From positions 1-18,717 of IMG/VR virus record IMGVR_UViG_2703718806_000010: 18,717 nt of DNA; one strand, written 5' to 3'. The stretch comes from a virus (taxonomy: Duplodnaviria; Heunggongvirae; Uroviricota; Caudoviricetes). Each line of letters opens with the position of its first letter. Position 1 is the first letter of the stretch. Made by a program: the position numbers. Positions 15,001-18,000 of the stretch are shown here, one piece after another.

Positions 15001-18000
15001 TAATTATATCCATATGAGTTGCACTTTAATGTCATTCCATTTTGTAACACAATTGTTTTTCCGTAGTCACAACCTTCAAAATCGCCATCAACTTTTGAGA
15101 CTATACTGACTGTATAACCAATAAGCTCTTGATATTCATAATAAGTATTGTATGCGTTTGAACTTAATGGTAATAGAAATAAAGAAATCATTAATATTAA
15201 TTTTTTCATATAACATCCTTTTAGTTTCTTTATAAAAGATAAGCTATATCCACGTAACTCAATTATGTCAACATCAGTATCAAATAATGTTGACACACCA
15301 CACATTCTGTCGGATACTCTGCTTCAGGTGCTCAAAACACCTTAGCAAGTAGCGGTTACCGCGCCCGACAGACATGCGGTTTTTTTGTGTCCAGTCTTCT
15401 TGGTTTATGACCGGGCGTGCGGCTAATACAACACCAGCAATGGGAATATGCCCGCCGACTACTTGCGGTTTTGAGCGCCCGGTCACCCTCTCAAAAGGGG
15501 TAAATCAAAATATCAAGTAGGACACAAAGCATGAAAACCATCTCCGTGGAGTCCCTCTCCATAATTTCATTTAGTAATATACCTGTGGTGACTACAGAGC
15601 TTCTTGCCAGCTTATATGGCACAGAACCAGATTACATCCGAAAAAACTTCAATCGGAATTCTGGACGATTTGTTATCGGTAAGCACTACTTTTTACTTGA
15701 GAATGAGGAGTTGCGCGAATTTAAGCACAGCATGTCTTTAAGACCTTCTGTGAAAATCGCCCGTAACGTTCTCTCCCTCATCCTCTGGACAGAACGCGGC
15801 GCAGCCCGTCACGCAAAAATGCTCGAAACCGATCAGGCTTGACGTTATAGGTCGTTACTTGTAGATTTATCTTTGTGAGGCGTCAGAACCTCTCTAAAGC
15901 GGACAAAACCAACCCCGTCAGTGTTGGATTTTTTATGCCTGTTATTCAGTGATAGCACAATGTGCTGTCACATCCCCGAACAATGTCGGGAGGGCGACGA
16001 ATACAACACCCGTAAGGGGAATAAGTCCGCGGTTCTTTAGGCCGTTCTGAACCTCCCGACACCACTATCAGAGGTGGTAATTTCAGAAAAAGCTAAAGGA
16101 GGTCGTTATGACCATGCAACTCGCTGTAGAATCCCTCGTCGTCGTTACTTACTCTAACGTCCCTGTAATAACAACAGGGTTATTGGCAAATCTATACAAA
16201 ACTGAAGAAAAACATATACGGCAGAACTTCAAACGTAATGAATGTCGTTTCATTGCAGGAAAACACTTCTTTAAAGTAAGTGGCTGTGAACTTGATAGTT
16301 TGCGAACCTCTCAAAGAGGTTTACAAATTTCCCCAAAAACCCGCTCCCTCATCCTCTGGACAGAACGCGGCGCTGCCCGTCATGCAAAAATGCTCGAAAC
16401 CGATCAGGCGTGGGAAGTGTTCGAAAAACTGGAAGACTGCTATTTCAGCCAGGGAAAAACAACACAAACCGAACAGCAGCCGCAGATTCAGCCGCAATTC
16501 ACAGCCGAGGAAATCATCCTCCTTTGCTACATGCAGTTCTGGATGGAAAAAGCCCAGGACCTCAGCAAACACCTGTATCCCATCATGAAAGAGCTGAACT
16601 CATCATACACGAACAAGCTGTATGACATTGCGTTTGAGACTATCTACATGGTGACGAAGAACAAGGAAGCACTACTGCGGGAGGCGGCACAGCTTGACCA
16701 GTCAAGTTTCGTTGTCCAGCGGGCCAGACCAATGCTGAAAAGCCTGCGGGCAAGACAATTTGAATTCTGAAACCAAAGGAGCTTCGGCTCCTTTTTTGTT
16801 GGGAAAATCCAGTGAGAGGGAATAATGAACCAGACTATCTTCCTCCGAAGTAAGCAGCAGCAACAATTCGCCATTAACGCAATCCTTGCAACAACTCTCG
16901 ATAAAGACAAACCCGTTACGATCCGCATCACCGATTACAAGCGGAATCTCGATCAAAATGCCAAATTTCACGCGATGGTCGCTGATATCTCCCGACAGGT
17001 TCAGTGGTGCGGCAGATGGCTAAAACCAGAACAGTGGAAAGTTTTGTTAATCAGTGGTCATGCCGTGGCGACAAAACAGGAAGCTGATGTTTTGCCAGGT
17101 CTTGAAGGTGAATACGTCAATATCCGCGAAAGCAGTGCGCAGATGAGCGTGAAGCGTATGGCAAGCCTGATTGAGTACACAACTTCCTGGGCTGTGGAGC
17201 AGGGTGTCAGATTTACCGACAGGAGGTATGAATGAGACGACAGCGACGAAGCATTACCGATATAGTCTGTGAAAACTGCAATTACCTTCCAACGAAACGC
17301 TCCCGAAATAAACCCAGGCCAATCCCCAACGAATCTGATGTAAAAACCTTCAATTATACGTCTCACCTGTGGGATGTCCGGTGGCTCAGACGTCGTGCAA
17401 GATTTAATAGTCACTCCGGATAGTTCAATGTACGAGGAATAAGATGATGGCAAACCTACGCAAAGAAGCGCGTGGCAGAGAATGTCAGGTACGGATTTAC
17501 GGCGTATGCAATGGCAATCCTGAAACTACAGTTTTGGCGCATTACCGAATGGCTGGAATTTGCGGAAGGGGAATGAAGCCAGATGACCTGTTGGCTGCAT
17601 GGGCCTGTAGTGACTGCCATAATGAAATCGATCGCCGTACTCGCATTCTCGACAACAACGACGCCAGACTTTACCGCCTGGAAGGCGTGATCAGGACGCA
17701 GGCGATACTGCTGAAGGAGGGGAAAATTAAGTCATGAATGAATATGAGTTTGTGCTTCCCTGGCCGCCGACGGTGAATACCTACTGGCGAAGACGGGGAA
17801 GCCAGTACTACATCAGCGATAAAGGCCAGAAATACCGAAAAGACGTACAGCAAATCATCCGGCAACTCAGATTAGACATTTTCACTAAATCACGACTTCG
17901 CATCACAATTATTGCTGAACCACCAGATTCCCGTCGTCGCGACCTCGATAACATCCTGAAAGGTTTACTCGACTCTCTTATCTACGCCGGATTTGCGGAA

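Follow-up and report, generated by a model that had tools for sequence, protein, structure and literature searches.

In the prophage Gifsy-1, the isrK promoter has been shown experimentally to give rise to a short, terminated small RNA (sRNA) as well as a read-through messenger RNA (mRNA) that enters an antirepressor-like gene, and a processed, stable RNA complementary to IsrK sits between the sRNA and that gene (PMC4825925). Here, we examine an inverted repeat at positions 15266-15295 of an 18,717-nucleotide (nt) stretch of viral DNA (positions 1 to 18,717 of IMG/VR record IMGVR_UViG_2703718806_000010; hereafter, the window), one arm of which belongs to the promoter of a similar locus. Like IsrK-orf45(STnc1160)-anrP of Gifsy-1, the window locus has a promoter, a terminated leader RNA, a stable RNA complementary to the leader, and an antirepressor-like gene, and both loci lie in the nin region before Q. 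In contrast to Gifsy-1, the window leader and RNA match neither isrK nor C4 at permissive thresholds, and sRNA-Xcc1 replaces C4. We lean toward the interpretation that the repeat is a pair of opposed -35 boxes of divergent prophage promoters at the junction of an AT-rich cassette and an anti-immunity module, and not the operator of the neighboring helix-turn-helix (HTH) protein.

Three further systems bear on this interpretation. The immI region of phage P1 contains the c4 antisense RNA, icd, and ant, according to the work of Citron and Schuster (1990) as cited in PMC8201110. As in the window, a two-box antisense RNA is made from the antirepressor's promoter, with target boxes upstream and at the downstream ribosome-binding site (RBS). 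The a and b boxes of P1 follow a three-part layout, and one immI promoter has a C1-controlled operator. The window differs in that its RNA is of the Xcc1 family and not C4, no icd-like open reading frame (ORF) is present, and no C1-type operator was identified at its promoter. In the immI region of P22, the divergent promoters Pant and Pmnt are accompanied by Arc and Mnt operators. The first-pass annotation of the window sequence had drawn a picture of this kind, and the likeness is real insofar as the antirepressor promoter diverges from that of a small regulator gene and the module B protein of the window carries the C-terminal domain of the P22 antirepressor. Unlike P22, however, the window has no Arc- or Mnt-like gene, its HTH protein is an antitoxin with a different presumed operator, and control appears to be RNA-based. 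Symmetric bidirectional promoters of Escherichia coli also combine sequence symmetry with divergent transcription (PMC12825309, PMC10268837). The symmetry in the window resides in two -35 elements 18 base pairs (bp) apart, with predicted start sites ~90 bp apart, as opposed to a shared -10 element. In symmetric bidirectional promoters, the start sites are ~18 bp apart. The window arrangement is a conventional back-to-back promoter pair and not a member of the symmetric bidirectional class.

Results and Discussion

The repeat comprises a left arm, TGTCAACAT (15266-15274), a 12-nt spacer, CAGTATCAAATA (15275-15286), which differs between alleles, and a right arm, ATGTTGACA (15287-15295, plus strand). 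The arms are perfectly complementary over 9 bp, and the left arm reads ATGTTGACA on the minus strand. Each contains a TTGACA: that of the right arm (plus strand, 15290-15295) is the -35 hexamer of the module A promoter, and that of the left arm (minus strand, 15271-15266) faces the AT-rich cassette. The coordinates, sequence, and 12-bp separation reported in the first-pass annotation are exact, and its placement of the repeat at a cassette boundary is borne out: GC content is 27.6% across 14864-15265 versus 47.7% and 50.6% on either side, and the repeat, itself 30% GC, is the point at which homology to relatives ends. The window contains two copies of TTGACA on the plus strand and four on the minus strand, and the repeat is its sole back-to-back TGTCAA/TTGACA pair. 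Perfect 9-bp inverted repeats with spacers of at most 20 nt occur at six loci in the window (eight overlapping hits), and first-order Markov simulations give a chance mean of 2.05 hits per window (standard deviation 1.87). Because about two are expected per window, a single 9-bp repeat is not significant alone, and the case rests on comparison with relatives.

The repeat occurs in three alleles, which we refer to as the window, L155, and L002 types; both arms and the 12-nt spacing are identical in all of them, and all copies within each allele are identical. The window type is represented by ten draft assemblies with an identical intergenic region, in two of which the block sits in another prophage neighborhood, near the integrase. 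The L155 type is a diverged copy of the window cassette, with an 88% identical protein, 11 of 118 intergenic bases changed (~9%), and the spacer CAGTATCATATA. Positions 15265 and 15297, next to the arms, are among those changed, as is 15283 in the spacer; the arms, both -10 elements, and the Shine-Dalgarno sequence are free of changes. The L002 type has the spacer CTACACAAGGAA and an unrelated DUF805 gene cassette on its left. Its carriers are phages 75/02 Stx and POCJ13, eight complete genomes, and several contigs of viral or metagenome origin. Between the window and L002 types, 0 of 18 arm positions and 8 of 12 spacer positions have changed (Fisher p = 8.5e-5), and the left flanks are unrelated (5 of 24 positions identical). 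With three alleles only, the lack of arm changes relative to the 9% diverged L155 type carries little weight (P = 0.17).

An additional prophage locus, L069, joins an L002-type left side, repeat, and promoter to another leader, an Xcc1 variant, and an AntA-family gene. The arms thus stay fixed through changes in spacer, left-hand cassette, right-hand module, immunity type of the prophage, and neighboring HTH gene. This contrast among arms, spacer, and flanks indicates that the arms are constrained relative to the spacer and that the repeat-plus-promoter unit outlived exchange of both neighbors. An inversion of the spacer was considered and rejected, as the L002 spacer is not the reverse complement of that in the window. 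A metagenome scan for the promoter without the arms returned two loci only, both of the L002 type, and no new allele.

The unit is rare, and in most genomes module A does without the repeat. The leader and Xcc1 of module A are present in 152 of 5,426 complete E. coli genomes, and the repeat-type promoter in only eight. Most copies of module A have a TTGACA-N17-ATATAT promoter with no inverted copy upstream.

The identity of the rightward promoter follows from homology. A promoter scan of 14300-16400 ranked TTGACA-N17-GATACT (15290-15318; 10 of 12 matches) as the best promoter-like site. Its -10 hexamer, GATACT (15313-15318, plus strand), at which homology with L003-type promoters begins, places the predicted start at ~15325-15326. 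We collected upstream contexts of homologous modules from 80 loci encoding ORF6N relatives and from other fetched loci, which yielded 32 different sequences. In all 32, TTGAC[AGT] lies exactly 17 nt from YTATAT, GATACT, or TAGATT. In the sibling locus L070, the Rfam isrK model begins 6-7 nt past the -10 element. The assignment of the right arm as the module A -35 element in the first-pass annotation is upheld by this conservation of hexamer and spacing and by the position of the isrK model. By sequence homology, the right arm can be firmly assigned as the -35 element of a σ70 promoter, a homolog of the E. coli and Salmonella prophage promoters of the isrK/C4 anti-immunity type. Its hexamers are the same as those of lambda PL. 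Compared with isrK-type siblings, the window promoter has a GATACT -10 element and an inverted -35 copy upstream, absent there. The homologous promoter of PhiR5_2 reads ATGTTGACG without a left arm, indicating that the ATG of the right arm is ancestral.

From this homologous promoter onward, the window is laid out like an anti-immunity module, in which a terminated leader bearing target boxes comes first and an antirepressor-like gene lies downstream. The module A leader (15326-15408, plus strand) contains boxes a1 (15330-15338) and b1 (15345-15352) and a T-run at 15380-15386, and it occupies the position of IsrK/c4-a1b1 in siblings. It is followed by copy A of sRNA-Xcc1 (RF02221; 15409-15492, plus strand; 79.3 bits), with antisense boxes b' (15459-15466) and a' (15468-15476), and then by an ORF6N gene (15531-15842, plus strand) truncated at 103 amino acids (aa), whose a2/b2 boxes (15505-15520) abut the Shine-Dalgarno sequence (15518-15522). 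The Xcc1 boxes b' and a' are complementary to b1 and a1 of the leader, respectively, and also to the pre-RBS boxes at 15514-15520 and 15505-15510. All three box sets covary across four modules (window A, window B, L069, and L102), and in all four modules tested, each Xcc1 antisense region forms its most stable duplexes with the leader and the pre-RBS region of its own module. Window module A pairs at -34.1 and -18.0 kcal/mol, respectively; the corresponding means for shuffled sequences are -12.0 and -10.6 kcal/mol.

In the siblings PhiR5_2, L001, and phiSTEC1589, the order after the homologous promoter is Rfam isrK plus c4-a1b1, C4 (RF01695), and finally ORF6N. The stretches compared were 15326-15533 and 15868-16110 of the window, 2462-2644 of L001, 3391-3589 of L070, and 7376-7558 of L153. 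A search of the window for C4, isrK, and c4-a1b1 gave no match up to E = 5, and only sRNA-Xcc1 was found, with two matches. In the window module, sRNA-Xcc1 occupies the position of C4; the module probably works like the isrK/C4 family, but its RNAs do not belong to that family by sequence. The complementarity of the Xcc1 boxes to the leader and pre-RBS regions, together with their covariation in four modules, suggests that Xcc1 acts on ORF6N antirepressors as an immunity RNA of the C4 kind. Published data show that sRNA-Xcc1 is very abundant and poorly covered by ribosomes in an enterohemorrhagic E. coli (EHEC) lysogen (PMC5331693), and in the distant APSE phages sRNA-Xcc1 is also found upstream of an ORF6N gene (PMC7313666). 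Our literature search found no paper on this repeat or on Xcc1 as a C4 substitute.

These features can be combined into a simple model. The rightward σ70 promoter would fire in the lysogen to produce a short terminated leader RNA, the stable antisense sRNA-Xcc1, and a read-through ORF6N antirepressor mRNA, the translation of which would be held in check by RNA-RNA pairing. The left arm, an inverted copy of the same -35 element 18 bp away, would drive leftward transcription of a signal-peptide ORF and an orphan antitoxin gene. Because control of output would lie mainly downstream of the rightward promoter, no operator is required, and a dedicated DNA-binding regulator would probably be absent. 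The module A promoter would then be constitutive and stand back-to-back with the promoter of an imported gene, as an ordinary divergent-promoter junction in a mosaic prophage region.

The leftward half of this model concerns a 105-aa ORF with an N-terminal signal-peptide-like segment (14892-15209, minus strand) inside the cassette. Its ATG (start 15209) is preceded at 6 nt by the Shine-Dalgarno sequence AAGGA (15220-15216), and a candidate -10 element, TATAGC (15243-15248; minus strand, 15248-15243), lies 17 nt from the left-arm -35 element, predicting a start near 15236. In the window and L155 types, TATAGC at exactly 17 nt and AAGGA 6 nt before the ATG are both retained, with no change in L155. 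The leftward gene starts 57-80 bp from the left arm in every repeat-bearing allele. Opposed -35 hexamers 22 bp apart also occur in an independent context (L079/phiSTEC1589), where the leftward promoter is TTGACA-N17-TATCCT and the 9-bp symmetry is absent. Of the leftward promoter proposed in the first-pass annotation, the TTGACA-N17-TATAGC sequence stands, with its -35 element, -10 element, and Shine-Dalgarno sequence intact in the ~9% diverged allele, but its -10 element is weak. The left arm may plausibly supply the -35 element for a leftward promoter of the inserted 27.6% GC gene.

Several observations weigh against reading the repeat simply as two opposed -35 boxes. The left-arm -35 hexamer is perfect, but TATAGC matches the -10 consensus at only four of six positions and lacks the T at -7 (position 6). 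In the L002 type, the leftward -10 element is only TAACGT, 18 nt away, with three of six matches. No leftward promoter was called here by the scan of 14300-16400; the missing T at position 6 explains why TTGACA-N17-TATAGC is not on its list. Moreover, the symmetry extends beyond the hexamers, for which promoter function by itself does not account: an inner ATG/CAT match is present in all alleles, and an outer C/G match lengthens the arms to 10 bp in the L002 and L155 types. Finally, the exact 12-nt spacing was held while 8 of 12 spacer bases diverged, a pattern typical of a protein site with two half-sites. As the left arm copies ATG as CAT, the arms extend, and the spacing is fixed, we retain two alternatives, namely an operator and a left arm without function.

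As an operator, the repeat would be bound at its half-sites by a dimeric or tetrameric protein from the host or a distal part of the prophage, which would occlude both -35 elements and co-repress the cassette and the module. We regard this as unlikely, though it has real points in its favor. The two half-sites of 9-10 bp have centers 21 bp apart, equal to two helical turns, and the center of symmetry is ~45 bp from both predicted start sites. The symmetry reaches 3 bp inside the hexamers and, in two alleles, 1 bp outside them. The contrast between unchanged arms and a diverged spacer is seen in alleles with unrelated left flanks, the spacing is fixed in three of three alleles, and the L155 substitutions abut the arms with none inside, although the last of these carries the low weight given above for that allele. 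On the other side, the module functions with no repeat in ~95% of the genomes that carry it, and the homologous isrK and P1 c4 systems are controlled by RNA. The version in which a host-encoded or distal prophage protein covers both -35 elements, coupling the imported secreted-protein gene to the Xcc1/antirepressor promoter, we consider less probable still.

The candidate binder named in the first-pass annotation was the adjacent XRE-type HTH protein, a proposal that comparison with relatives does not support. This 93-aa HTH_3 protein (14582-14863, minus strand) is the antitoxin half of a Gp49/N15-gp48-type toxin-antitoxin pair, orphaned by loss of its toxin. In the L002, L069, and 75/02 Stx loci, a Gp49-family toxin gene is followed by the gene of an HTH protein to which the window protein is 96-100% identical; its identity to N15 gp48 is 38%. 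Relatives encode PF05973 (Gp49) as the partner toxin. Among known systems, the relevant one is autoregulation by type II toxin-antitoxin pairs (N15 gp49/gp48, tad-ata-like), as the window HTH falls in the same antitoxin family. The toxin-antitoxin operon of relatives diverges from the same module promoter, and its own promoter, TTGAAT-N17-TATGTT, encloses a perfect palindrome, ATAACAAATTTGTTAT, that L002, L069, and PhiR5_2 have in common despite variation in its flanks. Based on this conservation, ATAACAAATTTGTTAT is likely the operator of this antitoxin. Compared with L002 (43-700), the window has the 27.6% GC cassette in place of the toxin gene and the native operator, with homology ending exactly at the HTH start codon, and ATAACAAATTTGTTAT has no match in the window with up to three mismatches allowed.

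The half-sites and spacing of the repeat are unlike ATAACAAATTTGTTAT, with which the arms have only a TGTT core in common. The HTH and the repeat also occur apart. The L155-L160 loci keep both arms with an unrelated HTH (21% identical), and PhiR5_2 and five viral loci have the HTH without the repeat. The 93-aa HTH was therefore rejected as the binder in our main interpretation.

CI and Cro fare no better. The window is a lambdoid prophage with an integrase at its left end (1-1164), Cro, CII, replication genes, NinB, and RusA. Its S24-type CI (8593-9363) is at least 99% identical only to the CI of Shigella phages POCJ13 and 75/02 Stx and of phiSTEC1589. The right operator (OR, 9364-9435) contains AGTTAA/TTAACT-type palindromes, unlike the arms, and a search of the window for further half-sites with at most one mismatch gave a single, chance-level hit. 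Because an identical repeat occurs in the L069 prophage, whose CI and Cro are unrelated to those of the window, these proteins are unlikely binders, and both were rejected. Binding by the module's own N-terminal domain is likewise unsupported: AntA replaces ORF6N in L069, and most copies of the same ORF6N module have no repeat. Of the linked DNA-binding proteins, none follows the repeat from allele to allele, as CI, Cro, the 93-aa HTH, and ORF6N/AntA all vary.

The second alternative holds that only the right arm is functional and that the left arm, which would have arisen by a small inverted duplication or by recombination at the promoter, is a relic carried along with it. A 9-bp repeat of this kind is expected by chance in the window, the repeat is restricted to one rare promoter variant, and the identity of copies within each allele makes a recent origin possible. 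The region is heavily mosaic and contains truncated promoter remnants, such as GTGTTGACGACAACACATATC in L002, and the leftward -10 hexamers are weak. A relic would, however, be expected to decay like its surroundings, yet the left arm is intact where 8 of 12 spacer bases have changed and the left flanks are unrelated, and it is intact in the 9% diverged L155 allele as well. The survival of the repeat-plus-promoter unit through a swap of both the left cassette and the right module also argues against this explanation, to which we assign about the same low probability as to an operator.

The repeat could also act as a DNA cruciform or an RNA hairpin, for example, as a terminator or a processing signal for transcripts that cross the junction. 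Folded as single-stranded DNA, it forms a 9-bp stem with a 12-nt loop (-7.0 kcal/mol, z = -3.1 vs shuffles), a fold that merely follows from the repeat itself. The stem is AT-rich (30% GC for the whole repeat), no T-run follows, and the hairpin is worth only -7 kcal/mol; the repeat lacks the features of an intrinsic terminator and was not called as one, making a hairpin role unlikely. In addition, with predicted starts at ~15236 and ~15326, neither local transcript includes the repeat. We consider this explanation very improbable. The opposed -35 boxes of two divergent promoters thus remain our preferred reading.

The imported gene is itself unusual in distribution. The 105-aa protein has no Pfam or NCBIfam family match and, among 5.8 billion proteins, a single variant (88% identical). 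It always adjoins an ORF6N module. As the sole variant is also beside such a module, a "native" promoter of the cassette is not visible elsewhere. The protein is indexed in 176 blocks of public assemblies; none of the 5,426 complete E. coli genomes contains the cassette DNA.

We also searched for the repeat more widely. A scan for the exact palindrome in 185,579 species-representative genomes gave 37 hits, compared with ~9 expected, all in unrelated taxa, which indicates that the repeat has no wider family. Among viral contigs with the exact palindrome, only L041 and L045 are true relatives. The motif TGTCAACAT-N12-ATGTTGACA was observed in twelve Rhizobium-group loci (L008, L014, L017, L018, L021, L023, L025, L030, L034, L035, L038, and L040), with extra ATGTTGACA/GTCAACAT copies and a CCACTTAA-like motif nearby. 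The Rhizobium-group palindrome is a separate conserved element, unrelated to the prophage repeat.

Three other features of these loci were recorded. In L002 (75/02 Stx type), the AT-rich DUF805 cassette lies between two direct but diverged copies of the module promoter region (717-737 and 2502-2530), one of them the truncated GTGTTGACGACAACACATATC beside the toxin-antitoxin genes and the other the full repeat-type promoter; the two copies hint at a route of cassette capture. In L079 (2155-2235) and L153 (7270-7350), a perfect palindrome, TGTTGTTA-AGGA-TAACAACA, covers the -10 element of the leftward TTGACA-N17-TATCCT and appears to be an autoregulatory operator serving the two small divergent genes at these loci. 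Finally, the window contains a second module, B (15839-16770, plus strand), with a TTGACG-N17-TAGATT promoter (15839-15867), Xcc1 copy B (15985-16068, 76 bits), and an antirepressor-like gene (16108-16770, plus strand) encoding ORF6N and P22_AR_C domains. The ORF6N gene of module A is truncated where the module B promoter begins, and its relatives are full-length (222-224 aa). Recombination between module copies appears to have produced the tandem arrangement.

Conclusions

This comparison corrects the annotation of the locus, in which the neighboring HTH protein is an orphan antitoxin and not a local regulator. The repeat marks the joint between an imported gene and an anti-immunity promoter in Shiga-toxin-type phages such as 75/02 Stx and POCJ13. 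Of greater interest than the repeat itself is sRNA-Xcc1, which takes the place of the C4 immunity RNA in this module. If the repeat were an operator after all, a system thought to be controlled by RNA only would gain an input at the DNA level. Antirepressors of this class can speed prophage induction and hence toxin release (Phi24B, PMC3064807), and it therefore matters whether the module receives a protein input or is under constitutive, RNA-only control.

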